From the IMG/VR virus record IMGVR_UViG_3300014913_000007, positions 32,001 to 96,000 of that record: a stretch of 64,000 nt of DNA; one strand, 5' to 3'. Positions 43,689 through 61,057 of this stretch are shown here, one piece after another (positions within the stretch are counted from its first letter, which is position 1; every line of letters begins with the position of its first letter). The notes beneath the pieces are model-generated. The model saw nothing but the letters and a program-made list of their open reading frames with translations. It made no database searches and had not been told where the DNA came from. This DNA is from a virus. The position numbers and the translations under genes are program-made.

Positions 43689-43717
43689 TTGACTTTAATA
43701 TTTCAATGTACTATAGT
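43689..43717 (+). promoter_or_regulatory. promoter of tRNA array A
   Basis: TTGACT-N17-TATAGT. Confidence 0.75.
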
Positions 43718-43726
43718 AAATATGTT

Positions 43727-43773
43727 GCAGGTAATAAATATAGGGATACTCCTATAATTAGCCTGCTTTTTTT
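43727..43773 (+). terminator. promoter-proximal intrinsic terminator / attenuator hairpin
   Basis: GCAGGTAAT..TATAGG/CCTATA..ATTAGCCTGC followed by T7. Confidence 0.65.
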
Positions 43774-43783
43774 ATGAGTTAAT

Positions 43784-43903
43784 ATGATGGAAAAGAAACT
43801 TCAAATACATACAAATATCAATTCTAATATTATGGTGCCGTTCATGGTACCCATGTTTATTGCCCCTGCGGGGCAAGTACAACCAGTGCCATTTTGGTGC
43901 TAA
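43784..43903 (+). CDS. leader peptide A (MMEKKLQIHTNINSNIMVPFMVPMFIAPAGQVQPVPFWC)
   Basis: 39-codon ORF just upstream of array A; 30/39 residues match the array's tRNA specificities. Confidence 0.75.
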   Translation: MMEKKLQIHTNINSNIMVPFMVPMFIAPAGQVQPVPFWC

Positions 43904-43950
43904 TAAATTATTAATCAAACAATTTAGTTCGGGTAGAAGAAAGCAAATTT

Positions 43951-44025
43951 GGCGGGAAGGACGTTGGCTTCCAGTAGTGTCTCATAAGCATTATTACGCT
44001 GGTTCAATTCCAGCTTCCGCAACCA
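43951..44025 (+). tRNA. tRNA-Met(CAT), 1:72 mismatch (fMet/Ile2 identity uncertain)
   Basis: anticodon loop CTCATAA, TTCAATT T-loop, CCA. Confidence 0.75.
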
Positions 44026-44110
44026 TTTTATTAACTTAAATTCCTAGGATTACCATTTTCAGTGATTAGCTTGCAACACTTTGATCTTTAAGTGGTAGTC
44101 CTACTTTTCT

Positions 44111-44185
44111 GCTCCGGTAGCTTAACTGGTAAGAGCGTTCGGTTGAAGCCCGAAAGATGGAGATCGACACCTCTCTGGAGCACCA
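44111..44185 (+). tRNA. tRNA-Phe(GAA)
   Basis: cloverleaf, loop TTGAAGC, CCA. Confidence 0.85.
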
Positions 44186-44186
44186 T

Positions 44187-44258
44187 ACACTTCTAGTCTT
44201 GGGACAAAGGAAGCCTCCAAAACTTCTAAGCAGAGTTCGAATCTTTGGGAGTGTGCCA
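44187..44258 (+). tRNA. tRNA-Trp(CCA)
   Basis: loop CTCCAAA, TTCGAAT, G73 plus CCA; short D arm. Confidence 0.8.
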
Positions 44259-44259
44259 T

Positions 44260-44333
44260 GCTAGATTAGTTTAATGGTAGAACAGGAGTTTTACATGCTC
44301 TTAGCGGTGGTTCGATTCCATCATCTAGTACCA
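44260..44333 (+). tRNA. tRNA-Val(TAC)
   Basis: cloverleaf, loop TTTACAT, CCA. Confidence 0.9.
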
Positions 44334-44348
44334 TATTTTTATTTTTAT

Positions 44349-44420
44349 TCCGGTGTAACTCAGTGGTAGAGTGGTCGTCTGTTAAACGACTTGTCTGTAG
44401 TTCGATCCTACACACCGGAG
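44349..44420 (+). tRNA. tRNA-Asn(GTT)
   Basis: loop CTGTTAA; no encoded CCA. Confidence 0.9.
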
Positions 44421-44427
44421 CTTTTAT

Positions 44428-44503
44428 TGTATCTTAGCTTAATTGGCAAAGCGTGGAACTGTTAATTCCAAAGATTTAGGTTCGAACCCTAAAGATACAG
44501 CCA
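44428..44503 (+). tRNA. tRNA-Asn(GTT)
   Basis: loop CTGTTAA, CCA. Confidence 0.9.
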
Positions 44504-44504
44504 T

Positions 44505-44582
44505 CTGGATGTAGCTCAGCCTGGTCAGAGTGCTCGTTTTGGATACGAGTTGTCGGGGATTCGAATTCCTCCATCCAGACCA
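44505..44582 (+). tRNA. tRNA-Pro(TGG)
   Basis: loop TTTGGAT, C1-G72, CCA. Confidence 0.9.
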
Positions 44583-44592
44583 TTTTTTTTAC

Positions 44593-44668
44593 CTGGCATT
44601 GGTGTTTAACAGTAGCATGGTGGCTTTGGGAGCCAGCGGAGAAAGTGCAAATCTTTCATGCCAGACCA
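44593..44668 (+). tRNA. tRNA-Pro(TGG)
   Basis: loop TTTGGGA, CCA. Confidence 0.85.
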
Positions 44669-44724
44669 CTTTTTTAGAACAGTCATTCTTTACATTAAAA
44701 GCTATATAATATATACTATACTTA

Positions 44725-45174
44725 ATGGATACCAAGTACTGTGATAAATGTAAGAACGACCTGCCAGTTGATACTTTCCAAAGACGTGGGAAAAACGGAT
44801 TACAGCCTTGGTGTAAGAACTGTCAAAAAGAGTATGATAGACAACGTTACATAGATAATAAAGAATACATCTGTAAGCAAAATAAAGACGGTAGAGAGCG
44901 TAGAAGAGAAAGAAGTAGAAACGAAGTAACAAGCTATCTATTAGAGCATCCTTGTGTTGATTGCGGTGAGAAAGATATAATAGTACTCAGCTTTGATCAT
45001 GTTAGAGGAGAAAAGGAATTTAACATATCAGATGCGATTAAGGATGGTATGAAGTGGGAGAGGATAGCGAAAGAAATAAAGAAGTGTAAAGTTAGATGCT
45101 TCAACTGTCACATGAGAAAGACTGCAAAACAGCAGGGCTGGTTCAAATACAACAAATCAAATAAGAAAAAATAA
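44725..45174 (+). CDS. HNH endonuclease inside tRNA array A
   Basis: CVDCG..FDHV..RCFNCH; N-terminal CxxC pairs. Confidence 0.85.
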   Translation: MDTKYCDKCKNDLPVDTFQRRGKNGLQPWCKNCQKEYDRQRYIDNKEYICKQNKDGRERRRERSRNEVTSYLLEHPCVDCGEKDIIVLSFDHVRGEKEFNISDAIKDGMKWERIAKEIKKCKVRCFNCHMRKTAKQQGWFKYNKSNKKK

Positions 45175-45187
45175 CAAACAAAATTTA

Positions 45188-45261
45188 GGGGATATAGTTT
45201 AAATGGGAAACGCCAGCCTTGCAAGCTGAGGTTCTGGGTTCGATTCCCAGTTTCTCCACCA
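45188..45261 (+). tRNA. tRNA-Ala(TGC)
   Basis: G3:U70, loop CTTGCAA, CCA. Confidence 0.9.
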
Positions 45262-45269
45262 ATTTTTAA

Positions 45270-45344
45270 CCGGGGTTAGTGAAGCGGTTATCACCTCAGA
45301 CTTTGAATCTGAGATCGAGAGTTCGAATCTCTCACCCCGATCCA
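45270..45344 (+). tRNA. tRNA-Gln(TTG)
   Basis: loop CTTTGAA, CCA. Confidence 0.9.
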
Positions 45345-45345
45345 C

Positions 45346-45438
45346 TTTGGCCGATCCTGTACACCACTTATAAACTGACATATGTGACGGTAATCGCTAT
45401 TCATTTGGCGATCTTTTGGCCGATCTTTTGGCCGATCT
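45346..45438. repeat. TTTGGCCGATC(T) repeats, 4 copies (3 tandem)
   Basis: copies at 45346, 45404 (1-nt deletion), 45415, 45427. Confidence 0.8.
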
Positions 45439-45442
45439 TTAC

Positions 45443-45518
45443 GGGGGAGTAACTCAGGGGTAAGAGTGCCAGTCTGATATACTGGTGGTCGAAGGTTCAA
45501 CTCCTTCCTCCCCTACCA
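45443..45518 (+). tRNA. tRNA-Ile(GAT)
   Basis: loop CTGATAT, CCA. Confidence 0.9.
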
Positions 45519-45559
45519 TTTTCAATTGACTTACATTTATATGTAGGTTATACTTAACT

Positions 45560-45724
45560 AGGAAACACCAGTTAGAAGTTACTAGAAGCTTGGTGGTGTA
45601 CTTCTCTGGCATAGATCTATAGTAATTCTAGTTGAGCAAAATGTACGAAGCATTCACTATAGGTACCAGAGTTAGTGGTTTAGGGGGTGTTTAATGAGGC
45701 GAAGCCCTCCGACTGGTGTTTCTT
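45560..45724 (+). ncRNA. candidate ~165-nt structured RNA (6S-like rod)
   Basis: TTGACT-N17-TATACT at 45526-45554; 14-bp terminal stem; inner stem; U-tract. Confidence 0.55.
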
Positions 45725-45796
45725 TTTTCTTTCTTCAAGAAATCAAAAAGAAAAAAATAACAAAACAAAATTTAGGAATTATAATTTGATAGCTAT

Positions 45797-46348
45797 TTAG
45801 GTAAGAATACTTAAATCGTTGACGAAACACGACCAATTTTTGGCTTTTTGATGATACCCTAAAGGTAATTTAATGGGTAATTCATAGTAAAAATCATTGG
45901 TTACCTTATCTTGGTTTGGGAAGAAATCCATTCCTGTTTGATCTTTACCTATAAAATAACTTCTAGCTTCCTTTAAGGATATAGCTTTATCAAACAACAC
46001 CCAAACATGGTACCTATCTGGTGCTCCGCTTTTTTCTATAAGTATATTACTATGTATCTGTTTAGCCCAGAAAAATGCTTTAACTAAGTACTCCTCTCTT
46101 ATATCATCTACATCAAAACATAGGAACTTAACTGTCTGTGTTGAAAGTTCAGTTGGAAAGACACCCAAGGTTATCTTCCCTGCTAGATGTTTCTCGATTA
46201 ATTCTTTAGTAAGTGGAGCATATACTCTTTCATAGTAGTTCTCCCTTAATCTCCCAGAAGCATCCCTCTGCCAAGGATGCGGAGTCATTAAACAATAGGC
46301 ATCTTTTCTATGACAAAAAGTGTTATATAAGAAATCTACTTTACTCAT
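45797..46348 (-). CDS. stand-alone archaeo-eukaryotic primase domain (TOTE-associated type)
   Basis: HLAGKITLGVFP, FDVDD, EKSG..YHVW, FPNQD, IKLPLG. Confidence 0.75.
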   Translation of the reverse strand: MSKVDFLYNTFCHRKDAYCLMTPHPWQRDASGRLRENYYERVYAPLTKELIEKHLAGKITLGVFPTELSTQTVKFLCFDVDDIREEYLVKAFFWAKQIHSNILIEKSGAPDRYHVWVLFDKAISLKEARSYFIGKDQTGMDFFPNQDKVTNDFYYELPIKLPLGYHQKAKNWSCFVNDLSILT

Positions 46349-46658
46349 CTTCTATTTTATGTACACATCTAACACTATTCTCTGTATCTTCCTGTAAGGC
46401 AGTTCTATCCCCAATCATTAAGTCTCGATTTCCATTTATTACTCCTGTGGACAAAAGATATAGCCATTTATATCTTGTCAAATCTTCCACTTCTTTAGAG
46501 TATCTAACCACTGACTGCCAAGAAGTCCTAGGCCAGTCTGCTACCTTTGGAGCAAGTCCTAAAGTTTTTACTTGAACATTCACTACTTGTCCAACACTGT
46601 AGTCTTGAGTATCAGTAGTATAGTCTTCTGTTGCATATGTAACATAAATTGCTTTCAT
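46341..46658 (-). CDS. hypothetical protein
   Basis: ORF in a minus-strand run. Confidence 0.55.
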   Translation of the reverse strand: MKAIYVTYATEDYTTDTQDYSVGQVVNVQVKTLGLAPKVADWPRTSWQSVVRYSKEVEDLTRYKWLYLLSTGVINGNRDLMIGDRTALQEDTENSVRCVHKIEDE

Positions 46659-46659
46659 G

Positions 46660-47671
46660 TTATATTCTCCATTTTATTAAGAAATTAAGTGCATAATCCG
46701 ATTTATTAAAAATATTTATCTGTGTAGTACTAGGTGGATCTGAGGTCTCCGTAGGAAAAGCAATCATAGTATTAAAACCCTTTTCATCCCATTGCCATCC
46801 TGCCCCACCTCGATAGATATTAACTACCTGCCCCGGTACTTGTCCAGTAATGCCATTATGAACTAGAGTATCAGGAAAGGTATAATTATAATTAGTTATC
46901 CCGCGCCATACTGCCTGAGTAACATTACGAACATTAAACTCATCCGGTGGTTCATGGAATTCAAAAATGTCGTTAGTTTGATGTGTTGCAGTTCCTGATA
47001 CCATCGTTGTATTTGCTTGCTTACTGTTGATATATGAAGTAATATAGCTCCAGGTATCTCTTGTTATATTATGAACTACAGCTCCTACAGGCAACTTACC
47101 TTGTATCACCGACCTAGTTAGGATACTTGTAAGACCTGTATTACCGTGGCTTAAACCAGTACCAACAATAAGTCCTAACTGATACCACACCTTCCCCTCA
47201 ACAACCATCTGAGTAGTTGAAGTACCAGCGGAGAGTGTTAAATCTAACTCCCCTTCATCAGCAAAATTTCTTTGTTGTATAACTTGAAAATCGGCAGTAT
47301 AAGCCGGAATCGATAGGTTGACAGTTTCCCATCTCTTACCCTCTACCACAACTATTGCCATATTATTATAAAATTTATTGTCTTCTATGTCAGTCTCAAG
47401 CATAGAGCTTGTTGAGGCCACCAATTCGTCTACATACAGTTTTAGTTGTGGCATCATTCTGCCCACTTGGAGTGGGTAAATTAATCAAAGATTGATTATT
47501 AAAATCCACTGGACTTTGTGGTTTATATAGGTACCAATCCTCTGCAGCTCCTCCAGAGGGTACAACTATTTCTGAATCAGAATACCTTCCAGCTACAGCT
47601 ATCAAGTCCTTCCCTACCTTAATTATACTTGATTCAGGTGTTACTTGTGGATCTACTTTATAATTTGACAT
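46660..47671 (-). pseudogene. MSNYKVDPQV-module virion protein split by a +1 frameshift
   Basis: 47396-47671 and 46660-47466 join as DATTK|LYVDELVAS, matching EAATKLYVDQLIAS in the 56241 paralog; extra base in the T4 run at 47440-47443. Confidence 0.75.
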
Positions 47672-47930
47672 TTACCACTCTTCTATGCTAAATTTTTCTC
47701 TAGATATACTTATAATATAGTACACAAAGTTAACATTCAACTTTTTAGTTAAGTATCTACAATATTATACTTTGTCAACTATCTAAAACACACACGGACT
47801 TACAAGTCCTCTGTTTCTACTTTATAAAAAAGGACCCGTAAGTGACTAATTACAGGTCCAAAGCCGTCACGACTAACATGTACGCATTGTACTACTTGAT
47901 ATATAGTACTTTTAATAGTATACTACAAAT

Positions 47931-48452
47931 ATGTTTAATTTCATAGAGATATTATTTATAATGTTATCAACAACCTACCAGGTTCCTGAAATCTTTGATT
48001 GCCATATAAATAAATATCAGATATTAAAACTCAGTAACGAAGTCACCTTTGATGTAAGTAACTTCCTAAAGTATGATAGATATGTACTCAAATCGTCTCA
48101 AATTCACTCTATAGACCCCGATTTAATCAGATCAATCATCATAGTGGAATCTAAATATAATCCAGCTGTAGGCTCTCACAGAGGGGCTAGCGGGTTGATG
48201 CAGCTCATGCCACTTACTGCCAAGTATTTAAACGTAACAGACAGGAAAGATCCTGAGCAATCAATTGAAGGTGGTACTAAGTATTTGAGGGAACTATTCA
48301 CCAGATTTGGTAATCTAGACCTTACCCTAGCAGCGTACAACGCAGGTCCTACAATAGTAGGAAAGTACAATAAGATTCCTCCAATTAAAGAAACTGGCAT
48401 ATATGTTAGGAAAGTCAAGTACTTATATAAACAATTATCTAAAAACAACTAA
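47931..48452 (+). CDS. SLT-family lytic transglycosylase
   Basis: VES, GASGLMQLMP, AAYNAG. Confidence 0.9.
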   Translation: MFNFIEILFIMLSTTYQVPEIFDCHINKYQILKLSNEVTFDVSNFLKYDRYVLKSSQIHSIDPDLIRSIIIVESKYNPAVGSHRGASGLMQLMPLTAKYLNVTDRKDPEQSIEGGTKYLRELFTRFGNLDLTLAAYNAGPTIVGKYNKIPPIKETGIYVRKVKYLYKQLSKNN

Positions 48453-48527
48453 TAACAATCTCTGAAAATGTACTATCTTATAATGTAGTATACTTGTATA
48501 AAAATATTTTTAAAGAGGTAATATATA

Positions 48528-48800
48528 ATGGCATTATTATTTGATGGAGTAGCAACGGATTTCGCAGCTGATGAAGCTAGTTTCGTAGAGGTTGCACATA
48601 ATATTGGACAATGTCCTGATAGCATTCAATTTTTAGGAGTTGAAGGTGAGGTAGAAGGTTTTCCTACACTACTAGATGGTGAAGGTGATGAAATTCCTGG
48701 CCCATACCTAACACAAACAAGAGATCCTAATGTAGTTAGAGTTCACAAACCTAACGCTTATACGTTCGCAGGTAAGTTTATTGTTCGTATTTACGGATAA
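48528..48800 (+). CDS. small putative virion protein
   Basis: GAGG RBS; TGTACTAT motif upstream. Confidence 0.6.
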   Translation: MALLFDGVATDFAADEASFVEVAHNIGQCPDSIQFLGVEGEVEGFPTLLDGEGDEIPGPYLTQTRDPNVVRVHKPNAYTFAGKFIVRIYG

Positions 48801-48851
48801 TTTATAATCTCTATAGCCTGGTTAATTAACTTTAACTGGGCTATTTTTACG

Positions 48852-49214
48852 TCATAAATCTATAAGTCTCAGCTCTCTATTCCTATAATAGATTTTAGCA
48901 GTACCTTCAACGAAGTCTTTTAATGTTCTTGAAAAGATAGTACACCCATAACAGTCTGCCAACCTGTCTTCGTAATCCACTAGAGCTAAGAAATTGTTAA
49001 CTCCTCCTAAGCTTTCCTCTGAAAACCCAAACTTTATTAAGTCTTTTCTTTCTAAAGATCTTCTATCTATATGTGCTCCATTATAGAATTCAGTACGTAG
49101 TATAGCTTTATACTTAGCACCTTCCTTAGTTTCCTTTATCCAAAAAGAATTACCAAAGAGCAGAATCTCTATGAATTTATCTCTAGTTACTCTTCTTATC
49201 TTATATCTACTCAT
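48852..49214 (-). CDS. hypothetical protein
   Basis: ORF. Confidence 0.55.
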   Translation of the reverse strand: MSRYKIRRVTRDKFIEILLFGNSFWIKETKEGAKYKAILRTEFYNGAHIDRRSLERKDLIKFGFSEESLGGVNNFLALVDYEDRLADCYGCTIFSRTLKDFVEGTAKIYYRNRELRLIDL

Positions 49215-49770
49215 CTCTTAAAAGTTCCTGTCTGAAAAGTACCCAACGATGGTTAAGTTCTACTTTACCTCTATTAACCTCATCTAAATAGTCTATACAG
49301 TCAACTACATTGTCAAACATGAACTTAGGATCTATAATTCCAAATAACCAAGAGGATGCTTTTGTTTTACCCCCTTTCACGATAACTAGTACAGGCTTCT
49401 TCTGCTGATCTGCAAGTATTAGTTCATGGTACGTTCCACACATATGAATGCTAGTATCTACCATAACTATTAAGAAGTCAGAGATATCTACTTGTCTCAA
49501 ATCCGAGCGTACAATTTTTCTCATTAATCTTCTAAGTTTTGTCCAGCTTCTGTTCTTCTTTAATGTTCGAATAGCTTCCTGCTCCTCTCCTACGTCAGGT
49601 GTAAGAGCTTCTAACTTATGAGTTGGGTCTAGGAATTTGATACCTATACCTCGTTTCTTAGTTTCTTCTATAATTTCTTGTCTATAAGACACTCCATAAT
49701 CCTCAGACATATCAATAGGTCCCGCTAAATATGCCACAGATTTATCTAATATGTTGACCTTTTTACTCAT
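49207..49770 (-). CDS. nucleoside 2-deoxyribosyltransferase-like protein
   Basis: YLAGPID, DLRQVDISD, GTYHE. Confidence 0.75.
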   Translation of the reverse strand: MSKKVNILDKSVAYLAGPIDMSEDYGVSYRQEIIEETKKRGIGIKFLDPTHKLEALTPDVGEEQEAIRTLKKNRSWTKLRRLMRKIVRSDLRQVDISDFLIVMVDTSIHMCGTYHELILADQQKKPVLVIVKGGKTKASSWLFGIIDPKFMFDNVVDCIDYLDEVNRGKVELNHRWVLFRQELLRDE

Positions 49771-50741
49771 TAGTTTTCTCCATGTTTAGTATATAAATGT
49801 AAATATATTCTAGATATCTGATCTAGAAAAATTTCAAAGGTATGATCCTTTTTCATCATATTACAAGTTTTGCAAGCTGGTACACAGTTATCTAAGTAAT
49901 AACCCTTAGTATTGTCTAGTCTATCTATACTATTCCTAAATAGTCCTTTTCCTGACCTGAGCTTAGTTTGCGGAGAGTTTCCACAGTAATAACACTTTGA
50001 AGAGGCTATGGTTTTGAACTCCTCCAAAGTTAGATCAAAAGTAGTATTGTTAAAAAGCTTGTTACGTCTTCTATAGTTTGAAGCTATATACGCTCTAAAT
50101 TCTGACTCCCAAGCTTTAGCCTTAGTAGAAGGTCTCAAACTTTGTGAACACCTTGAACACTTTTTAATTAGTCCCTGCCTAAGATTGCAACCTATATATG
50201 CCTGCTCATTACCACATGTACACCTACACATCCACTTAAGTTCACGTTTTCCACTTTTAAATACATGATCCTCAACATTATACAAGACTACCAAATCTCC
50301 AAACACTTTTCCAGATAGATCAATAACAGATTTATACCTAATTACTTTAGAAAGGTTATCACAAGTCTCGCAGTAGGTACTACTACTTCTTCTAGAGGCT
50401 TTTCCATTGTAAGTCTTCAAAGTATCAATTGATATTTCCTTTTCTAGACCACAACTGCATTTACATAGATACCAAGATCGTCTTGTCTTTGTTGTCGAAC
50501 TTCTAGTTCTCTCTAAAACTGTCCAATTGTAGAAAGATTTCCCTATTAATTTTAACCTCTGTTCTTCGTGTTTACACTTTACACATTGTGTACTCATGCC
50601 TCTCGATAAAGCTGATCCTAGGACTGTGCTTTCTGTACCACAACTACATTTACATGTCCAATAAAGGTTTCCACTGGCGCTCTTATCCCTGGCTTTACTA
50701 ACTACCGTCCATTTACCTATTATTTGTCCAGTTTCAATCAT
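49770..50741 (-). CDS. HNH-type endonuclease with three CxCxCG repeats
   Basis: GKWTV..W.C.C.CG-like unit x3; CYYCG..IDRLDN..GY..NCVPACKTCN. Confidence 0.85.
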   Translation of the reverse strand: MIETGQIIGKWTVVSKARDKSASGNLYWTCKCSCGTESTVLGSALSRGMSTQCVKCKHEEQRLKLIGKSFYNWTVLERTRSSTTKTRRSWYLCKCSCGLEKEISIDTLKTYNGKASRRSSSTYCETCDNLSKVIRYKSVIDLSGKVFGDLVVLYNVEDHVFKSGKRELKWMCRCTCGNEQAYIGCNLRQGLIKKCSRCSQSLRPSTKAKAWESEFRAYIASNYRRRNKLFNNTTFDLTLEEFKTIASSKCYYCGNSPQTKLRSGKGLFRNSIDRLDNTKGYYLDNCVPACKTCNMMKKDHTFEIFLDQISRIYLHLYTKHGEN

Positions 50742-50835
50742 TTGTCTAAAATATTCGGATTCTTACTCATATTAAATCCTGTTATTAAGTAAAAATTCTA
50801 TACCTATTATAACATTATAAGTACAAAGCTGCAAC

Positions 50836-51216
50836 CTACTTACCATTAACATGTTTATATACCTTGTCATACAACTCTTTTACTAACTTACTAATAAATT
50901 CCGGATCATGAGTCTCTACTTTACTAATATGCTTACCACAATCCTTACAACGAACATAGAAGTGAATGCGGGGACCAATAAAGTCTCCTTGACAGGAATC
51001 ATAATCCTCTCTTTTGACGTGTTCGATATCTGGGTCATAATCTAGATTCTCATGCTTACAGGCTTCTATCTCACAGGCTCTTTCACATACTCCGGCCTCA
51101 TGCTCTTGTTTATAGGACTTACTACAAATATCACAGATATACTCGTAAACGTCATACTTCACCGTCCTTTCAATTGTCTTAACTAGTTTCTTCTTCATTG
51201 TTTTCCTTACATCCAC
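50836..51216 (-). CDS. Cys-rich zinc-binding protein (paralog 1)
   Basis: YxCxxC..CE..C..CxH..CxxC. Confidence 0.65.
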   Translation of the reverse strand: MDVRKTMKKKLVKTIERTVKYDVYEYICDICSKSYKQEHEAGVCERACEIEACKHENLDYDPDIEHVKREDYDSCQGDFIGPRIHFYVRCKDCGKHISKVETHDPEFISKLVKELYDKVYKHVNGK

Positions 51217-51547
51217 AAATTACAAAATCATCTGCTAACTCATATACTTCTCTAAAAAACTTACGAGAACAACATAAGTCCATCTTCTTATCTGATATTA
51301 CCTTATTACAGTTACTGCACTTCTCTAACAGGTACAGATATCCGGGTTCATGATCGTCTACATCATAAGAACGTCCTGGGAATTCCTCTATTACTACCTT
51401 TGTACAGTAATGTTTGCAATCTTTCTGCCTACATAATGACTCACACTCCTCTATATCTTTAGGACTTAAAGACTTCTTACCACAAAAGATACATTCATAC
51501 TCAATTACATATTCAGTTACTGGTACTTTTATTCTTTCTGTTTTCAT
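51179..51547 (-). CDS. Cys-rich zinc-binding protein (paralog 2)
   Basis: same Cys pattern. Confidence 0.65.
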   Translation of the reverse strand: MKTERIKVPVTEYVIEYECIFCGKKSLSPKDIEECESLCRQKDCKHYCTKVVIEEFPGRSYDVDDHEPGYLYLLEKCSNCNKVISDKKMDLCCSRKFFREVYELADDFVICGCKENNEEETS

Positions 51548-52847: not shown

Positions 52848-52852
52848 GAAAC

Positions 52853-53382: not shown

Positions 53383-53388
53383 GAGTAT

Positions 53389-53469
53389 ATGATTACAAGA
53401 ATGATTTCTTTATACACTTCTTTATGTACCTCTTATCTAGAGGAACTCGAATATCTATATCTAAAATAA
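53389..53469 (+). CDS. leader peptide B (MITRMISLYTSLCTSYLEELEYLYLK)
   Basis: ATG at the expected +1; L/Y/E/C-rich, matching array B. Confidence 0.75.
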   Translation: MITRMISLYTSLCTSYLEELEYLYLK

Positions 53470-53484
53470 GGTAAACTTCACATA

Positions 53485-53549
53485 AAACTAAACGCACTTC
53501 TGGCCCAGTTTTATGGGAAGGAGATAAGTGTATTTAGTTTTTGTTTTTT
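53485..53549 (+). terminator. terminator-like hairpin between leader B and the first tRNA
   Basis: AAAACTAAACGCACTT/AAGTGTATTTAGTTTT followed by TGTTTTTT. Confidence 0.55.
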
Positions 53550-53553
53550 ATTA

Positions 53554-53640
53554 GCCCAGGTGGTGGAATTGGTAGACACGCTGAGTTTAAGCCTCAGTGT
53601 CAGCAATGACGTACAGGTTCGAGTCCTGCTCTGGGCACCA
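53554..53640 (+). tRNA. tRNA-Leu(TAA)
   Basis: long variable arm, loop TTTAAGC, CCA. Confidence 0.9.
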
Positions 53641-53641
53641 T

Positions 53642-53725
53642 ACTAGATTGGTGGAATTGGTAGACACATTAGGCTCAAACCCTGAGGCCAGAAATGGTGT
53701 ATAGGTTCGACTCCTATATCTAGTA
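53642..53725 (+). tRNA. tRNA-Leu(CAA)
   Basis: loop CTCAAAC; no CCA. Confidence 0.9.
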
Positions 53726-53730
53726 CTTAT

Positions 53731-53814
53731 GCCGAGGTGGTGGAATTGGTAGACACGCTAGTCTTAGAAGCTAGTGCCCGAAAGGGCGTGAGGGTTCGAC
53801 CCCCTCCTTCGGCA
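53731..53814 (+). tRNA. tRNA-Leu(TAG)
   Basis: loop CTTAGAA; no CCA. Confidence 0.9.
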
Positions 53815-53823
53815 CTTTTATAT

Positions 53824-53897
53824 GACTCCTTGGTCAAGTGGTAAGACGAGAGATTGCAAACCTCTAGTCCTGGGTTCAATCCCCAGAGGAGTTTCCA
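53824..53897 (+). tRNA. tRNA-Cys(GCA)
   Basis: loop TTGCAAA, U73, CCA. Confidence 0.9.
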
Positions 53898-53898
53898 C

Positions 53899-53986
53899 GG
53901 GAGAACGGTCACGATGGTGGAGTGGCACTGGTCTGTAAAACCAGCACAAAGAAACACAGGGGGTTCGAATCCCTCTTCTCCCACCA
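53899..53986 (+). tRNA. tRNA-Tyr(GTA)
   Basis: loop CTGTAAA, long variable region, CCA. Confidence 0.9.
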
Positions 53987-53989
53987 CAT

Positions 53990-54060
53990 GTCTCCATCGT
54001 CTAACGGTAGGACATCTGACTTTCTATCAGATAATGTCGGTTCGATTCCGGCTGGAGATA
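53990..54060 (+). tRNA. tRNA-Glu(TTC)
   Basis: TCTGA-CTTTCTA-TCAGA anticodon arm; no CCA. Confidence 0.85.
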
Positions 54061-54066
54061 CTTTTT

Positions 54067-55110
54067 TTAATCCTCTACTAGTACCTTAGATTGTATATAC
54101 TCTTTAACATACTTAAAAGGAATATCTAAGTCTTCGCTTATCTCCTCATAAGAAAGTCCTTCATCTATAAGCATAGTAGAAACTTCTGTTCCGTGTGCCT
54201 CCACTAAAGGTCTGAAGACTTGTTTAGCTTTTATTAACTCTTTCTTTGAGTTCCAATATCTAACAGACTTAAATAATTTCTTAGCTTTAGTATCTTCTGG
54301 AAAAATAGATGATTCAAGATCTACTTCTGGATATAGAATTTCTGCAAACTTAATCATGTCTACTGTCATAACTCTTACCCTACATACAGTAGATTGCTTC
54401 GTACTAGTATTTTCTAGGATGGTATTATATATTCCTAAATCCTTTAGTACTTCTGAAAACTGAGTGACAAATTTAATAGTAGGTCCACTCATGGATAGAA
54501 ATCCAGGTTCAGGTTCTGTTAAATTCTTACAGAAACCTCCATGTCTTTCAAAATACCCTCTCAAGTAATGTGGTAGTAGTTTCTTTGGCATTAAAGGTGG
54601 GAAGTCTAACATGTTTACATTTCTACTACCATAGTGCCACTTATTAAGTGCTTCTCTTATTCCTTGTTGGCTTATAGTAAGAAAAAATTTACCATATTCA
54701 CGTCCATTTACTGTTTGAGTACGGTAACTAAATTTATTATCTATCTTTAAACATTTTTTTAACTTTACTAAGTACTCTTTATCTTTTATAGAAGAAGTTA
54801 TTATCATACTTTCTGAAGTACTAGTCTTAAGGATCGATCCTGCCCAAGCTAGGTAACCTAATACGTAAGCTAAGTCCTTATTATCAATTTTCTTAAACTT
54901 ATCTAAGTCTATTTTCTTATACTTTCTTGTATTAATCATTCCAAGATCATAGCATTCCTTAAAGGATCTAAACTTCATATTATATTTTTCAAATAGCTTT
55001 TCTACTCTGTAAGTTGTAATAGAATATTTTTTTGCTATAGCTTTTTTACTTTTAAGCTCAATTAAGTAACTGGTCTCTAGTTGTTTTTTAGTTGGTAATT
55101 TAGTAAGCAT
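54067..55110 (-). CDS. degenerate LAGLIDADG protein with terminal HTH-like segments
   Basis: YVLGYLAWAGS and YLRGYFERHGG lack the catalytic D-G. Confidence 0.7.
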   Translation of the reverse strand: MLTKLPTKKQLETSYLIELKSKKAIAKKYSITTYRVEKLFEKYNMKFRSFKECYDLGMINTRKYKKIDLDKFKKIDNKDLAYVLGYLAWAGSILKTSTSESMIITSSIKDKEYLVKLKKCLKIDNKFSYRTQTVNGREYGKFFLTISQQGIREALNKWHYGSRNVNMLDFPPLMPKKLLPHYLRGYFERHGGFCKNLTEPEPGFLSMSGPTIKFVTQFSEVLKDLGIYNTILENTSTKQSTVCRVRVMTVDMIKFAEILYPEVDLESSIFPEDTKAKKLFKSVRYWNSKKELIKAKQVFRPLVEAHGTEVSTMLIDEGLSYEEISEDLDIPFKYVKEYIQSKVLVED

Positions 55111-55215
55111 CTATCAGTCTCCTTAAAAAATTCACTATAAGTAGCAGCTTACCAATATACAATAGTTTTGTCAATAGTACTTGCTATCTAAATAAAAATC
55201 CTATATAATATGCCT

Positions 55216-55381
55216 AGGGAGTGCCGACTCACAGTAGAGGAAACACTCGTAACGACAAAAAAATAAAGATGCTACTGTCTCTTAACTACTGGGTTTAATG
55301 GTTCGTTTATGTGCTCTGTACGTAACATCACCACCGATGGCTGTAGGTGTAAGCTCAACCTAGGAACGGGCCAGCTTTTTT
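55216..55381 (+). ncRNA. candidate structured RNA / 5' leader
   Basis: TTGCTA-N17-TATAAT at 55181-55209; multi-stem fold; U-tract. Confidence 0.4.
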
Positions 55382-55399
55382 ATTATACAAGTAACTAAA

Positions 55400-55738
55400 A
55401 TGAAGAAAATAAAACCTAAAGACTATTCAAAGTTAAAGCCTGGTAAAACATACCTATTTGCAAGTATACACTTCAAAGAAAAAGAAGTAAGTCTGCAAGG
55501 GAAAAAAGTTAAAACCTGGGAAATAGTAGAAGTAACTCCCAGAGAAGGTAAATTACTATCAATAACCACTAAAAGAATAGAGATACTAAAGAAAGGCAAA
55601 CCTACAGGAAAGTTCGCTCTGGTTGGGGATGTATTAATCTTTGAACCAAGAAATAACTGCATAGTATTAATGGGAAGTAAAGTAAAAGTCTTCAAAACAG
55701 TAATAGGCTGTAATAATTTTAAAATATATAAGAAGTAA
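55400..55738 (+). CDS. basic hypothetical protein
   Basis: ORF. Confidence 0.55.
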   Translation: MKKIKPKDYSKLKPGKTYLFASIHFKEKEVSLQGKKVKTWEIVEVTPREGKLLSITTKRIEILKKGKPTGKFALVGDVLIFEPRNNCIVLMGSKVKVFKTVIGCNNFKIYKK

Positions 55739-56240
55739 TTAAATATGGATCCAGTAATACTAATATTAATACTTATCTTATTTACGTCTGTGACTATAAA
55801 TTTGGTGCTTACATGTAGGTTATTAAGGTCTGAACTAACTTTAAGAAGAAAATCTAAAAGATTAGAAGCAGTTATGAAAGAAAATGAACGCTACTTCTAC
55901 GAACAGTTCGATAAATATGTTGATAACAAGTCAAATGAGGATTTTCATTAATCTGCTGGCCTATCTACTAAAATCCAGACACATCTACTGAATATATTTA
56001 AAGTAACTTCATCCTTCAATTCATGATCGTCTGGTGAGATGGTCTTATCATACCCTAAACATTTGAGATATTTATTCTCTACCCTGGCTAATTGTCTTAA
56101 CTTTTCAAAAGAGAGTTTCATTTCGTCTCTGTCCTTTTCCAGCATTGTATGTCCTTATGTATTTATAAGTTATTATTAATATTAGTTTAACATATATTTA
56201 ATACTAAGTCAAATACGTATTTTATGCTATTTCTTGACTT

Positions 56241-57794
56241 TTAAGCAATTATTCCTGAGGCTGTTACCCAATTACTACCACTATACCAAATTGGTAATCC
56301 TAAAGTAGTATCAAAGTAGAGTTCTCCTAATAGAGGTAATCCAGGTCTTTCCCCTGTGATACCTGCACTAGGTGTAACTAGAACGTCTAAGGCATCTTTT
56401 ACTGTAGATCCTGATACTGTAGAATCATTAATAGTAATAGAAGCAAAACTCTCTATAAAAGTATCATTTAAAGAAGTGGTATTACTATCATCTAAAGTAT
56501 ACCCATTCTCAATTAAGTAATCTACGGTATTATTATAACAAACATTTTTCTTTAAGTTACATACAGAACCATTCTCAAGTCTTATACCTCTATTACAGTT
56601 ATAACAAGTATTACCGATTATCGCTGCCATTCCATTAGCACTGCCACCGTCTAAAGATATACCCTCACCCGAACACTCAGAAACTAGGTTATCTTGGAGA
56701 ATACTAACACTAGTGACATCATCTATATCTATACCTTCAATGCAGCGTTTGACCCTATTTCTTCTAATTATTGCTGAGTTTCTGTAGCCAGAAATAGTTC
56801 CTAACTGATCTAACTTTATCCCTTCGCCTCCATTACCATCATCACAATTATTAATGTAACAATCTTCTACTAGCATGTTAATTGAATTCTGTAAATGAAG
56901 ACCTCTGCCCAGACTTGCAGAATCAATAAAACAATTCTTTATAAACGCAGAGTTAGAACCTCTTAAACAGATAGCTGCTCCTTCTATCTTATCTGTAGTG
57001 GCCTTATGTAAGTGACAGTCAATAATGGAGATATTACTACTCATTTCAGATATAGAAGGTGCAGTTGCATAATCTGATCCATTATAGTAGGCTAATAGTA
57101 TTGCACTGCCCTGGGCATTTCTTATAGTAATATTGTGAAATATTAAATCATTAGCTTTAGAATGATTGTCTTTAAATGTTATTGCGGAGCCTTTACCATT
57201 CTGGTAGGAGGTAGTGCAATCTTCTAGTATTAAGCTACTCAGTAAGATATCAGCTGCCCCATCTTCTACTTGAATACATTGCTGACCTGTAATAACTGGA
57301 AAATATCCATCTGTTACCTTTACTTTAAATTCTACTCCTGAGGGTATAGTAATTGGACTATAAGTAGCACTTGTCCTAACTTCAAGTACTTGGTCATCAG
57401 TAAGCGAGTTAATTGCCAAATTTAAATCATTTGATCCAGTAGTGGTTAAGATAACGTCTGGTATCTCAAATCTTAGTTCCTCAATGTCTTGTAAAATACT
57501 TGAGTATTCTCCAGCCTCTACTGAAGCTATTAACTGATCTACATATAACTTAGTTGCAGCTTCAGAGTCTGTGGTGGGGTTTGGTAATTGACTAAGTATT
57601 TGATTATTAAAGTCTACAGCATCCTGAGGAGGATATTTGTACCACTCATCTGCTGCAGCTCCAGAACTTGTAGCTCCAGAACTTGTAACTGCCTCTGAAT
57701 CTCGGTATCTACCTCCAACAGCTAATAGTTCCTCTCCTCGCTGAATTACTCTAGATTCAGGTGTTACTTGTGGATCTACTTTATAATTTGACAT
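56241..57794 (-). CDS. MSNYKVDPQV-module protein with right-handed beta-helix (tailspike/depolymerase-like)
   Basis: I.N/GI repeats typical of parallel beta-helix; C-terminal RP..P..GELYFDTTL..W module. Confidence 0.75.
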   Translation of the reverse strand: MSNYKVDPQVTPESRVIQRGEELLAVGGRYRDSEAVTSSGATSSGAAADEWYKYPPQDAVDFNNQILSQLPNPTTDSEAATKLYVDQLIASVEAGEYSSILQDIEELRFEIPDVILTTTGSNDLNLAINSLTDDQVLEVRTSATYSPITIPSGVEFKVKVTDGYFPVITGQQCIQVEDGAADILLSSLILEDCTTSYQNGKGSAITFKDNHSKANDLIFHNITIRNAQGSAILLAYYNGSDYATAPSISEMSSNISIIDCHLHKATTDKIEGAAICLRGSNSAFIKNCFIDSASLGRGLHLQNSINMLVEDCYINNCDDGNGGEGIKLDQLGTISGYRNSAIIRRNRVKRCIEGIDIDDVTSVSILQDNLVSECSGEGISLDGGSANGMAAIIGNTCYNCNRGIRLENGSVCNLKKNVCYNNTVDYLIENGYTLDDSNTTSLNDTFIESFASITINDSTVSGSTVKDALDVLVTPSAGITGERPGLPLLGELYFDTTLGLPIWYSGSNWVTASGIIA

Positions 57795-57864
57795 AATTAT
57801 TATTATTCCCTCATATTAAAATTTCTTTTAATATTCTATAGTACATTACCAAGTTAAATATTTC

Positions 57865-57893
57865 TTGACATACGTTAATATCTGTACTATAGT
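57865..57893 (+). promoter_or_regulatory. promoter of tRNA array C
   Basis: TTGACA-N17-TATAGT. Confidence 0.75.
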
Positions 57894-57899
57894 ACATTT

Positions 57900-57983
57900 A
57901 TGATGTTATCTATTTGTAACATATCTTTTGACTTTGCCGTATTCAACGGTACAGGAATCACCTCGGGAACTGGCACACATTAA
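57900..57983 (+). CDS. leader peptide C (MMLSICNISFDFAVFNGTGITSGTGTH)
   Basis: ATG at the expected +1; G/T-rich C-terminus matching tRNA-Gly and tRNA-Thr. Confidence 0.7.
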   Translation: MMLSICNISFDFAVFNGTGITSGTGTH

Positions 57984-58074
57984 GTGTAAACTGTCAGGAT
58001 CCATCTAACAAATAAGTTTAAAATTTAATCTGGATACTGGCGGTACTAATATGATCGTATTTGGAGTTTGTTAC

Positions 58075-58410
58075 ATGAGTAGATCACGTAGAAAAAAACC
58101 TATCATCAGACACGGTGGTAGTGATAAGTGGTGGAGAAGGAACTACAATCGTAAACTAAGAAGAGCTAATAAGGTACTCTTACAGAAACAGAAGGAAGAT
58201 TTCCTACCTAAATTAGTTAGAGAAGTTAGTAATGTTTGGGATAGTAGTAGAGATTGTACTTTTAGATTTACTTATCTAAAGGATGGTAACTTATGTCATC
58301 TAAGTAACGTTGGATTCTGGGCTGATTTTTATGGAGTATCTATAGAAGAGTATATAGAGAAAGAAAAGAAAGAAGCTAAGGAGGAATACAACAAATGGAT
58401 GAGGAAGTAG
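58075..58410 (+). CDS. basic phage protein (MSRS.R..P type)
   Basis: GGAG RBS before ATG 58075. Confidence 0.6.
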   Translation: MSRSRRKKPIIRHGGSDKWWRRNYNRKLRRANKVLLQKQKEDFLPKLVREVSNVWDSSRDCTFRFTYLKDGNLCHLSNVGFWADFYGVSIEEYIEKEKKEAKEEYNKWMRK

Positions 58411-58556
58411 AGTACAAGAAAACTAACAGGGAGAAGGTACAGACTCCTAAGTTAGGTATATTCTATTGCACATGTGATAGAGCTTTAGTAGGAAAGGGGA
58501 GGAAGTGTAAGTTTTGCGGGACTAGAGATCCTGGTAAAACATTTAAAAAATAATAT

Positions 58557-58629
58557 CCTGGAATGAGGTTAATGGTTAGCCTGTCTGACTTCCAATCAGA
58601 ATGCGTCAGTTCGAATCTGGCTTCCAGGA
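58557..58629 (+). tRNA. tRNA-Gly(TCC)
   Basis: loop CTTCCAA, TTCGAAT; atypical acceptor stem; no CCA. Confidence 0.8.
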
Positions 58630-58634
58630 CTCCT

Positions 58635-58707
58635 GCTCGAATAGTATAAGTGGGCAATACACTGGTTTTGTAATCCAGAATTTTCGGATCGTGGCCGAAT
58701 TCGAGCT
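58635..58707 (+). tRNA. tRNA-Thr(TGT)
   Basis: loop TTTGTAA; atypical T-loop; no CCA. Confidence 0.75.
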
Positions 58708-58748
58708 AATTATTTGACATTACTTAGTATTTATAATATAATAGTTAA

Positions 58749-59117
58749 ATGTCCAAACTTAAAGTCTGTAAACAATGTGGAAAAACTTTCCCCAAATCAG
58801 GTATGTACTTAGGTAAGTGAAGGAACTTCTGTAATAGGAGTTACTTTCTTTTATGCTCCTCAACTAGGTTGGCCAGACAGTATTTACTGGAGAAACATGG
58901 AAACAAGTGTTTTCAATGTGAAGTAACCGGATGGAATGGACGGCCAGGACCTGTAGTTTTAGATCATATAAATGGAAACCCTTATGATCATAGTTTAGAA
59001 AATATTAGATTGCTCTGTTGTAATTGTGATGCACAAACTAATACATATAAAAACAAAAATAAAGGTAAAGGCAGGCACACTAGGAGATTACGATACAAAC
59101 AAGGTAAAAGCTACTAA
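58749..59117 (+). pseudogene. HNH endonuclease with in-frame TGA
   Basis: ATG 58749 is in frame with the HNH part (LDHING..LCCNC); TGA at 58818-58820. Confidence 0.65.
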
Positions 59118-59148
59118 TAGCTAACTCAACTCTCAGCTTCAGCTCCAT

Positions 59149-59454
59149 TTATTTTGGTAATAAAGTCTCAACGAGTACATGATAATCTCCGAATATAATA
59201 CATGTACCATAGTCATTAATAGAAAACTGACCAAAATTAGGTGATATACCTTCCACACTCTCCTTAAAATAACTAAAGGGTACTTCAAGCAAGGAACTAT
59301 TTCCCATACATAATACAACCTCTTCAGTGTTTACATCTATAAACCCACTTATTACATGCTTCTCTGGGTTATCTTTCTTTAATACTTTAGTTATATTATT
59401 AGGATCTAATTTTGCTCTTCTACTAATCATATGTTCCTCACTCAATGTATTCAT
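59149..59454 (-). CDS. DUF2442-like hypothetical protein
   Basis: VPFSYF..I.DYG..I.FG pattern. Confidence 0.45.
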   Translation of the reverse strand: MNTLSEEHMISRRAKLDPNNITKVLKKDNPEKHVISGFIDVNTEEVVLCMGNSSLLEVPFSYFKESVEGISPNFGQFSINDYGTCIIFGDYHVLVETLLPK

Positions 59455-59555
59455 TAGTTATTACAAAATAAGCTAGTAATATATTAATACATAATTTAAA
59501 GATAAATGTCAAGTTACCATGTATTATATGTACCATAGTGTACTATAATATAAGT

Positions 59556-59918
59556 ATGGATATATTCCAATTAATCAAACAATGCTTAGAAACAGCTGAG
59601 GATACACCACATTTAAGCGTACTGGACGATTACATGCTATCTTATACCCTGGACCCAGATGATGAAGATCTAGCCACAGCGAGAGAATATGACCTTGATC
59701 GAGTAACTTATAAAGGATTAATAGAAGGTGAACAAATATTTATAGGACCAGATAGACAACCTATAGCACTTAAAGAGTCTGAATATAAAAAGAAATGGGT
59801 GATGATTTCAACTACTAAATTAAAAGGACAAATATTACTTGCTGAATATGAAAAGCTAATCCAGCAAGTTTATAATCAGTTACCTGAAGCTTTGAAAGAT
59901 AAAGTCTTTATTAAATAA
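59556..59918 (+). CDS. hypothetical protein
   Basis: ORF; start taken at ATG 59556. Confidence 0.55.
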   Translation: MDIFQLIKQCLETAEDTPHLSVLDDYMLSYTLDPDDEDLATAREYDLDRVTYKGLIEGEQIFIGPDRQPIALKESEYKKKWVMISTTKLKGQILLAEYEKLIQQVYNQLPEALKDKVFIK

Positions 59919-59920
59919 TA

Positions 59921-60250
59921 CTAAAAAGCAAAGCATTCAAAATAAAATGCTGAATCAGATGGGGAGGAACTTATTCTTCTAGTACCTACTCTAATAGTAT
60001 TAATATCTGAACTATTAGTTAATTCTCTCCAACCAGTTACAGAACCATTGGAACTTTGCTGCTGATCTTCAAAAGATCTAAACTGTGTTTCAGGATCATT
60101 TCCTACATTACCCGTGAACATTCTTATAAGTTGCACTCTTTTACCAAAATTATGATTAAAATAATATTGAATTTCCGAAGTAGAGGTACTCCTGGTTAAT
60201 ACCTCAGATTGATAATGTAAAACATTACTTTCATTTGTTAATCTAATCAT
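59921..60250 (-). CDS. hypothetical (possibly virion) protein
   Basis: GAGG RBS. Confidence 0.55.
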   Translation of the reverse strand: MIRLTNESNVLHYQSEVLTRSTSTSEIQYYFNHNFGKRVQLIRMFTGNVGNDPETQFRSFEDQQQSSNGSVTGWRELTNSSDINTIRVGTRRISSSPSDSAFYFECFAF

Positions 60251-60321
60251 AATATAATTCCTCGTATTTATTATCTATTCTTTATATATATAGTATAGAA
60301 GTAATATTTTTAATATAATAT

Positions 60322-60350
60322 TTGACATTAATTTTTATTTGTACTATGAT
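60322..60350 (+). promoter_or_regulatory. promoter of tRNA array D
   Basis: TTGACA-N17-TATGAT. Confidence 0.75.
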
Positions 60351-60359
60351 CTATTTGTT

Positions 60360-60446
60360 ATGTTAATATCAACTCTAAAACATATACTATTCGATATAAA
60401 GCGGTTCCATAACCGCCATAAAAGACGCTTTGCGTCTACAATATAA
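60360..60446 (+). CDS. leader peptide D (MLISTLKHILFDIKRFHNRHKRRFASTI)
   Basis: K/H/R/D-rich, matching array D. Confidence 0.75.
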   Translation: MLISTLKHILFDIKRFHNRHKRRFASTI

Positions 60447-60494
60447 TCAAACAAACAATTCAATTAGGGTAGAAGTAATTAAGTAAATAAATTT

Positions 60495-60563
60495 GGCTGT
60501 ATAGGTTAATGGTAGACTAGGAGACTGTCGATCTCTTTGCCGGGTTCGATTCCCGTACAGCCG
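60495..60563 (+). tRNA. tRNA-Asp(GTC)
   Basis: loop CTGTCGA, G73; short T stem. Confidence 0.8.
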
Positions 60564-60570
60564 TTCTTTT

Positions 60571-60642
60571 AGGGAGATAGCTCAATGGTTGGAGCACTCG
60601 GCTCGTATCCGAATGGTTACGGGTTCAAGTCCGGCCTCCCTA
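60571..60642 (+). tRNA. degenerate tRNA, anticodon CGT (Thr) on an Ile/Met-like body
   Basis: loop CTCGTAT; mismatches in acceptor, anticodon and T stems. Confidence 0.5.
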
Positions 60643-60743
60643 CTTTTTAAAGTAAACTATTCTTTACATTATACCAACTTAATGTATAGAATACTAGACA
60701 TTATCTGCTATACTGTCTAAGATTCTATACATTATAGCATTTT

Positions 60744-60817
60744 GCTGCAGTAGTCTAACTGGATAGGCATCTCGCTTCTAACGAGACAATATGAAGGTTC
60801 GAGTCCTTCCTGCAGTG
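60744..60817 (+). tRNA. tRNA-Arg(TCT)
   Basis: loop CTTCTAA; no CCA. Confidence 0.9.
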
Positions 60818-60825
60818 CTTTATAT

Positions 60826-60899
60826 GGTGACCATAACTTAACTGGTTAAAGTGCCTGACTGTGAATCAGGTGATTCGGGTTCAAATCCCGATGGTCACA
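60826..60899 (+). tRNA. tRNA-His(GTG)
   Basis: loop CTGTGAA, encoded G-1; no CCA. Confidence 0.9.
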
Positions 60900-60905
60900 C
60901 CCTTT

Positions 60906-60981
60906 GCCCTGGTAGTATAATCAGATAAAACACTCAGCTACGAACTGAGAGATGAAGGTGCAAGTCCTTCCTAGGGTGCCA
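60906..60981 (+). tRNA. tRNA-Arg(ACG)
   Basis: loop CTACGAA, CCA. Confidence 0.85.
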
Positions 60982-60986
60982 ATTAT

Positions 60987-61057
60987 TCCCTCTTAATGTA
61001 ACGGTAGCATACCTGGCTTTTAACCAGTTTGTGGGAGTTCAAATCTCTCAGGGGGAA
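60987..61057 (+). tRNA. tRNA-Lys(TTT)
   Basis: loop CTTTTAA; no CCA. Confidence 0.85.

Follow-up and report, generated by a model that had tools for sequence, protein, structure and literature searches.

Short leader reading frames matched to their own tRNA blocks suggest supply-sensing control of tRNA transcription units in a phage

The reason why phages carry transfer RNA (tRNA) genes, and how these genes are regulated, has been debated for decades. We analyzed a 64,000-nucleotide (nt) stretch, referred to as the window, of the 153-kb IMG/VR record IMGVR_UViG_3300014913_000007, a linear fragment estimated to be 78% complete, in which four tRNA blocks (units A to D) are each headed by a promoter and a short open reading frame (ORF). 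This locus raises the question of whether the short ORFs are leaders which sense the supply of the very tRNAs encoded behind them, as proposed in an earlier note on this DNA that described a tRNA-sensing attenuation system. The sequence analysis reported here indicates that these ORFs are very probably translated regulatory leaders matched to their own array, and that supply-sensing control of each tRNA block, with ribosome stalling raising its output, is their likely function.

The four units share one type of promoter, located as follows.

43689–43717 (+): promoter of unit A, TTGACT-N17-TATAGT with TGTAC before the -10 box
53354–53382 (+): promoter of unit B, found by pattern search
57865–57893 (+): promoter of unit C, found by pattern search
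60322–60350 (+): promoter of unit D, with TATGAT as the -10 box

A search of the window with the pattern TTGACW-N17-TATRRT returned five matches on the + strand versus 0.22 expected. Four of them head the four arrays, in agreement with the common promoter layout described in the earlier note. The motif TGTAC stands directly 5' of the -10 box at 43689, 53354, 57865 and 60322 and is missing from the fifth match, at 58714. When the whole 153-kb record was considered, the combination of GTACTATRVT with a TTGAC -35 box was confined to these four promoters. The order promoter, short ORF, tRNAs, all on one strand, was found in the four units of the window and in 10 units of relatives.

The leader was defined as the first ATG ORF downstream of each promoter, which gave four ORFs.

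43784–43903 (+): leader ORF A, 39 codons, with 30 of 39 residues from the nine amino acids of block A
53389–53469 (+): leader ORF B, 26 codons, with 14 of the 25 residues past the start being Leu, Cys, Tyr or Glu
57900–57983 (+): leader ORF C, 27 codons, with Gly or Thr at 8 of the 10 residues 17–26
60360–60446 (+): leader ORF D, 28 codons from the ATG, with 13 of the 27 residues past the start being Asp, Thr, Arg, His or Lys

The cognate fraction, calculated over the whole ORF and over the distal half, was respectively 0.62 and 0.75 for leader A (0.77 and 0.90 when Met and Trp are included), 0.54 and 0.77 for leader B, 0.30 and 0.57 for leader C, and 0.46 and 0.57 for leader D. Residues 16–25 of leader B are exclusively Tyr, Leu or Glu. 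When each leader was compared with the blocks of the other units, the fractions ranged from 0 to 0.37. Among the 512 ATG ORFs of 20–45 codons in the genome, each leader ranked between first and fourth for its own block by three measures (empirical p 0.002–0.008). The earlier claim of a 26–39 codon ORF behind each promoter, rich in its distal half in the amino acids of its own array, is thus borne out, as is the claim that every amino acid of a block occurs in its own leader, which holds in all four units. Readability of the codons was counted by hand using standard wobble rules and the anticodons of the block itself: 52 of the 64 cognate leader codons can be read, a number that rises to 60 when U34 is allowed to decode entire four-codon boxes.

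The blocks themselves were delineated with ARAGORN, which recovered 23 tRNA genes in the whole record, all within the window and all in four blocks on the + strand.

43951–45518 (+): tRNA block A, Met(CAU), Phe, Trp(CCA), Val, Asn x2, Pro x2, an HNH gene, Ala, Gln, Ile
53554–54061 (+): tRNA block B, Leu(UAA), Leu(CAA), Leu(UAG), Cys, Tyr, Glu, with a T-run after the last tRNA
58557–58707 (+): tRNA block C, Gly(UCC), Thr(UGU)
60494–61058 (+): tRNA block D, Asp, Thr(CGU), Arg(UCU), His, Arg(ACG), Lys, with a T-run after the last tRNA

Two genes of block A are sub-threshold, since Met(CAU) at 43951–44025 and Trp(CCA) at 44187–44258 were reported by ARAGORN only at 95% and 90% of its default thresholds and remained undetected by Rfam at E<=1. 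In the Met gene, the acceptor stem is mismatched at its top; the Trp gene combines a C-A mismatch in the anticodon stem with a short D arm. The CAU gene could alternatively encode an Ile2 tRNA reading AUA. With Met and Trp included, the four blocks cover 19 amino acids. Ser is absent from the incomplete record, and Ser arrays are present in relatives. The coverage described in the earlier note, without Ser, therefore stands if the sub-threshold genes are counted; the split of amino acids between arrays is less clean in that Thr occurs in both C and D. Moreover, the leader and the tRNAs of unit C are separated by a pair of protein genes (58075–58410 and 58395–58553).

Relatives were reached in metagenomic contigs by way of two proteins, the B12-dependent ribonucleotide reductase encoded next to the units and the small operon-C protein, whose homologues led to them. 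The system was present in contigs L089, L090, L092, L095, L170 and L172, with reductase identities to the window of 71% for L089, 57% for L090 and 54% for L092; 10 further units of the same build were found in L089, L090, L092 and L095. The promoter type is kept in these relatives, with the ATG lying 9–10 bases past the -10 box in most units. The ORF is preserved in homologous leaders, a point on which the earlier note had let its proposal depend, and leader composition changes with array content as that note had suggested it might. A Ser-only array of one relative is preceded by a 16-codon leader containing 6 Ser codons, drawn from the UCN as well as the AGY family. Block A of L089 is divided in two, and the second part (Asn, Asn, Pro, Ala, Gln) starts from a separate promoter and has an 18-codon leader in which 9 of the 17 residues past the start belong to the Asn/Pro/Ala/Gln set. 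In L092, a Met/Pro/Ile/Lys/Arg unit and an Asn/Arg/Trp unit each have a matching leader. A permutation test of cognate versus non-cognate enrichment, also put forward in that note, was passed: with 8 non-homologous units, the true leader-array pairing was the single best of 40,320 permutations, and the 4 units outside the window, taken on their own, ranked the true pairing 1 of 24.

The match is also specific to the reading frame, since the cognate fraction pooled over 14 units was 0.44 in frame versus 0.23 and 0.16 in the other two frames. C leaders retain 27–28 codons in five contigs despite in-frame indels, and four of their Gly/Thr codons show only synonymous differences between relatives. 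The B leaders of the window and of L090 are unalignable, yet both are rich in Leu, Tyr, Glu and Cys. A 17-nt block over five regulatory codons of leader D is invariant in three relatives. No close relative was recovered by scanning IMG/VR with a tail-fibre-like protein, the reductase, the promoter pattern or the invariant D-leader block, no match was found when JGI metagenomes were searched with the invariant D-leader pattern, and in cultured-phage collections nothing closely related to the tRNA region, to the reductase or to the operon-C protein was found. Loci L096–L101, reached through a weak homologue, were dropped as a different system.

The start sites of the leaders suggest an unusual mode of initiation. 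In leaders B and C, the ATG begins on the seventh base downstream of the -10 box, which is the predicted +1, and the ATG of leader D lies nine bases past the -10 box, within 3 nt of the predicted +1. The mRNAs of these three leaders are consequently predicted to be leaderless or nearly so; leader A alone has a real 5' untranslated region, of about 60 nt. Two protein genes of the window start 6–7 bases past a good -10 box.

44725–45174 (+): HNH gene inside block A, own promoter at 44689–44717, ATG 7 nt past the -10 box, 149 residues, well supported

The other is a split HNH gene starting at 58749. Starts at the predicted +1 are thus seen in bona fide protein genes as well, which makes leaderless translation plausible for this phage. 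A count of leaderless genes under strict TTGAC promoters gave only two cases, so that pervasive leaderless starts were not confirmed. As a separate observation, the promoter of the second gene (58714–58742, +) has a perfect consensus and lies directly after tRNA-Thr; the HNH gene that it drives appears to be split into a 23-codon zinc-finger piece (58749–58820) and an 82-codon HNH piece (58869–59117), both on the + strand.

The RNA elements noted around the leaders of the window are listed below.

43727–43773 (+): strong hairpin with U7 behind it, downstream of promoter A and upstream of leader A, which looks like a terminator ahead of the leader
43931–43939 (+): GGGTAGAAG box of unit A, 11 nt upstream of the first tRNA of block A
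53480–53553 (+): long AU-rich terminator-like helix of unit B, arms 53484–53499 and 53526–53541, with a U-tract directly before tRNA-Leu
57990–58044 (+): long hairpin between leader C and the next gene, conserved, with three compensated pairs in five sequences and no U-tract
60467–60475 (+): GGGTAGAAG box of unit D, upstream of the first tRNA of block D

The most widespread feature is a hairpin at the leader stop codon. The stop codon lies inside the hairpin loop in 10 of 14 units and the hairpin ends at the stop in 2 more; its 5' arm is formed by the last regulatory codons, and a G-poor, CA-rich spacer lies past it. Folding energy around the leader stops was lower than at 600 control stop codons (Mann-Whitney p=2.5e-4). 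Leader A forms hairpins at 43862–43874 and 43885–43901, the second ending at the stop codon. In leader C, an inner hairpin (57936–57950) is followed by one with the stop codon in its loop (57974–57988). The hairpins of leader D (60401–60416 and 60423–60437) are built from the regulatory Arg/His/Lys codons and keep their positions in relatives, with one compensated pair. Synonymous codons in leaders A and D are rarer than in the long ORFs of the phage (p 0.005 and 0.003), and these rarer codons are mostly GC-rich and located in hairpins.

A GGGTAGAAG-type box is found 7–19 nt before the first tRNA in A, D and their homologues in L089 and L095, the two boxes of the window being identical and 11–19 nt away from that tRNA; no conserved pairing partner was found for it, and the 8-mer is common in coding DNA. 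The hairpin with U7 at 43727–43773 is absent from the homologous unit in L089, and could act as a 5' stabiliser or an extra termination point. Covariance models from Rfam, run on 43000–62000 at E<=1, gave tRNA-type matches only, and no leader, T-box or riboswitch family. A Rho loading site after the leaders is not supported by the composition of the spacers, which are G-poor only in the 20–27 nt before the box and have overall C:G ratios of 4:7 (A), 11:16 (B), 10:12 (C) and 4:6 (D).

Unit B differs from this scheme by its terminator-like helix, with which two pairings may compete, namely 53481–53489 with 53507–53515, and the leader segment 53411–53421 (codons 8–11) with the 3' arm. In the L090 homologue, the 5' arm of the helix lies inside the leader and the 3' arm precedes the U-run. 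The helix, the U-tract and the competing pairings are compatible with an intrinsic-terminator attenuator, and terminator-type attenuation is plausible in this unit.

Whether such control exists elsewhere was addressed through distant homologues of the operon-C protein, present in 66 metagenomic loci, 15 of which have tRNAs nearby, mostly on the strand of the homologue. In an unbiased scan, small ORFs upstream of all tRNA arrays in the retrieved loci were scored for cognate enrichment against swapped sets. Five arrays reached p<1e-3 versus 0.68 expected with swapped sets (maximum 3 in 200 swaps), one of the five being an artefactual tRNA call. Three units from uncultured phages, on contigs of 156 kb and 372 kb, have the complete arrangement of leader, antiterminator and terminator.

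L143, 3644–3790: leader-antiterminator-terminator unit
L143, 11355–11535: leader-antiterminator-terminator unit
L112, 9321–9480: leader-antiterminator-terminator unit

In the first unit of L143, a leader rich in Lys, Arg, Met and Ile precedes tRNAs for Met x3, Lys x2 and Arg x2; in the second, a leader rich in Thr, Ser, Tyr, Ala, Pro, Cys and His precedes tRNAs for Tyr, Thr, Pro, Ala, Ser, Cys and His. The L112 leader, rich in Gln, Phe, Arg and Val, precedes Gln, Phe and Arg tRNAs. All three have a hairpin/U-run terminator of textbook form, and in each the 5' arm of this terminator shows perfect complementarity, over 7–9 nt, with the codons at the end of the leader. Phage tRNA arrays with leader-peptide attenuation thus exist as a class, in which we infer that stalling gives read-through. 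Judged from its sequence, the lineage of the window is a variant of this class with a different output module.

Taken together, these results suggest a mechanism in which each tRNA block would be a transcription unit opening with a short translated leader ORF, the codons of which, mainly in the distal half, would demand the amino acids of the downstream tRNAs. The speed of the ribosome through the leader would therefore report the supply of those charged tRNAs; its position would set which RNA structures form at and past the stop codon, and the structure chosen would set the amount of the tRNA block made. If the leaders behave like those of amino-acid operons and like the canonical units of other phage lineages, slow decoding would most likely raise read-through, giving a separate feedback loop for each block. 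In the tRNA-sensing attenuation proposed in the earlier note, the sensor has thus held up through its array- and frame-specific match and its co-variation with array content; the attenuation part appears terminator-like only in unit B, and a link to host anticodon nucleases is conjectural. Units A, C and D are without a terminator, and spacer composition does not favour a Rho site. The sensor is thus well supported, whereas we infer its output and direction.

A more elaborate form of this idea, to which we give only tentative credence, is that the phage has a modular monitor of decoding capacity: a near-complete tRNA set would be distributed in blocks, each with a leaderless test ORF, and a block whose ORF is read slowly would be up-regulated alone. 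In this lineage, the output would depend on the hairpin at the stop codon together with the spacer and the box, and not on a classical terminator. The slow reading could be caused by anticodon nucleases of the host, by a loss of host tRNAs that the phage induces, or by a shortage of amino acids.

Several observations weigh against supply-sensing control with stalling raising output. Units A, C and D are without a hairpin/U-tract terminator between the leader and the tRNAs, and when unit B was folded thermodynamically with the footprint of a ribosome masked, no clean two-state switch emerged. Some leader codons cannot be read by the tRNAs of their own block (AUA in A; CGG, ACU and ACA in D), and non-cognate residues also occur in the leaders, among them Ser, an amino acid without a tRNA gene in the record. 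In leader D, the synonymous sites of the cognate codons do not vary; selection at the RNA level therefore also acts on this leader. Finally, structural covariation is thin because the relatives are few, 2–5 per unit family.

The lack of terminators leaves some room for another reading, which we consider unlikely, where the leaders are translated and the coupling is positive or has another output. The ribosome would push RNA polymerase past a pause at the stop hairpin or shield the pre-tRNA from Rho or nucleases, so that efficient decoding would increase tRNA output; or the leader would control RNA processing, or the translation of the small genes of unit C, instead of transcription. A common stop-codon hairpin without U-tract would suit a pause or processing site, and between the stop and the box the spacers are poor in G and rich in CA; their C:G ratios in the window, however, do not favour a Rho loading site. 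In unit C, leader nt 16–22 could pair with the region around the start of the following gene in 3 of 5 relatives, but this complementarity is only weakly above shuffles (p 0.02–0.07). This reading also has to face the stall-to-read-through attenuators with the same leader-array logic found in L143 and L112.

It is still less probable that the ORFs encode functional micropeptides, or that they are untranslated RNA elements which resemble the arrays for reasons other than decoding, such as structure-forming GC-rich codons or T-box-like codon-anticodon pairing. The invariance of distal leader D at the nucleotide level and the concentration of rare GC-rich codons in hairpins speak for this reading. 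A micropeptide or RNA element is, on the other hand, difficult to reconcile with a match which is frame-specific, with B leaders conserving composition and not sequence, with synonymous changes of the Gly/Thr codons, with leaders that change with array content, and with the failure of T-box or other Rfam families to match here. Chance resemblance of small AT-rich ORFs to the arrays, for which nothing but the small size of each ORF speaks, is effectively refuted by the ranking among small ORFs (p 0.002–0.008 per leader) and the permutation test (1 of 40,320), and the design recurs in independent metagenomic relatives.

Full-text searches of the literature found no description of leader peptides before tRNA genes. 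The closest parallels are the amino-acid operon attenuators, some of them multivalent (ilvGMEDA for Ile/Leu/Val, thrL for Thr/Ile; also hisL, trpL, leuL and pheL), which likewise have a 5' short ORF enriched in codons linked to the product and use ribosome speed as the signal; a terminator competing with a pairing that involves the leader is common to them and to unit B, L143 and L112. They differ in that the regulated genes are here tRNAs, so that the sensed molecule is the product itself, and in that up to nine amino acids are represented per leader. Moreover, three of the four leaders in the window are on predicted leaderless mRNAs, three of the four units are without a recognisable terminator, and no Rfam leader family matches. 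The pheST operon, with its pheM leader, and T-box riboswitches also tie a component of the decoding machinery to the state of the cognate tRNA. However, pheM controls a synthetase and is monovalent, and T-boxes read uncharged tRNA directly without a ribosome, through a conserved fold which is absent here according to Rfam.

Switches of the tnaC, mgtL/mgtP and ermC type resemble the units of the window in that leader occupancy reshapes the downstream RNA with no need for an intrinsic terminator, and in that a stalled or terminating ribosome near the stop matters; the possible pairing of the leader with a start region in unit C, statistically weak, would be a further likeness. In contrast to them, no effector-dependent arrest peptide is evident here and a Rho loading site is unsupported. 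With regard to phage tRNAs, van den Berg et al. 2023 (PMC10264068) described tRNA sequence changes that evade host tRNA nucleases and did not treat regulation. The T5 tRNA region is similar to the one studied here by its large repertoire with U34 anticodons, its coverage of nearly all amino acids and its many homing endonucleases. The small ORFs of the T5 region showed no cognate enrichment for the downstream tRNAs.

If the proposed control is true, the phage measures its decoding capacity separately for each codon family and sets its tRNA supply accordingly, which would make both the codon-supply and the counter-defence hypotheses directly testable. Ribosome-mediated attenuation would then also cover genes that encode the very molecule being sensed. 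The variant in the window may reveal an undescribed output mechanism, because its units are without terminators and have predicted leaderless mRNAs; were the decoding-capacity monitor real, it would provide a new output mechanism for leader-peptide sensing. The units formed by promoter, leader and spacer are short and portable, and could be natural reporters of the availability of particular tRNAs.

The genes located between leader C and its tRNAs are as follows.

58075–58410 (+): gene for a small, very basic protein of operon C, with no Pfam or PHROG family
58395–58553 (+): Cys-rich ORF of operon C, 52 codons

The basic protein may represent a family of phage proteins associated with tRNA arrays. 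Elsewhere in the window, a gene of the RNA-ligase family (PF09414) is present at 13991–14605 (+); an RNA ligase of the T4 Rnl1 type was looked for and not found, and there is a match to an Rnl2-type family. In relatives, RNA ligase and PNKP-like genes lie near the tRNA arrays, and these genes would be compatible with tRNA repair. Within block A, a short tandem repeat (unit of about 12 nt, x3) occupies 45345–45442 (+) between tRNA-Gln and tRNA-Ile. Right after tRNA-Ile, in the stretch 45526–45700 (+), a TTGACT-N17-TATACT promoter has no ORF behind it, and its predicted transcript is structured, non-coding and without an Rfam match. The tRNA region is also rich in homing endonucleases, with further HNH genes at 52853–53233 and 49770–50741 and a LAGLIDADG gene at 54067–55110.

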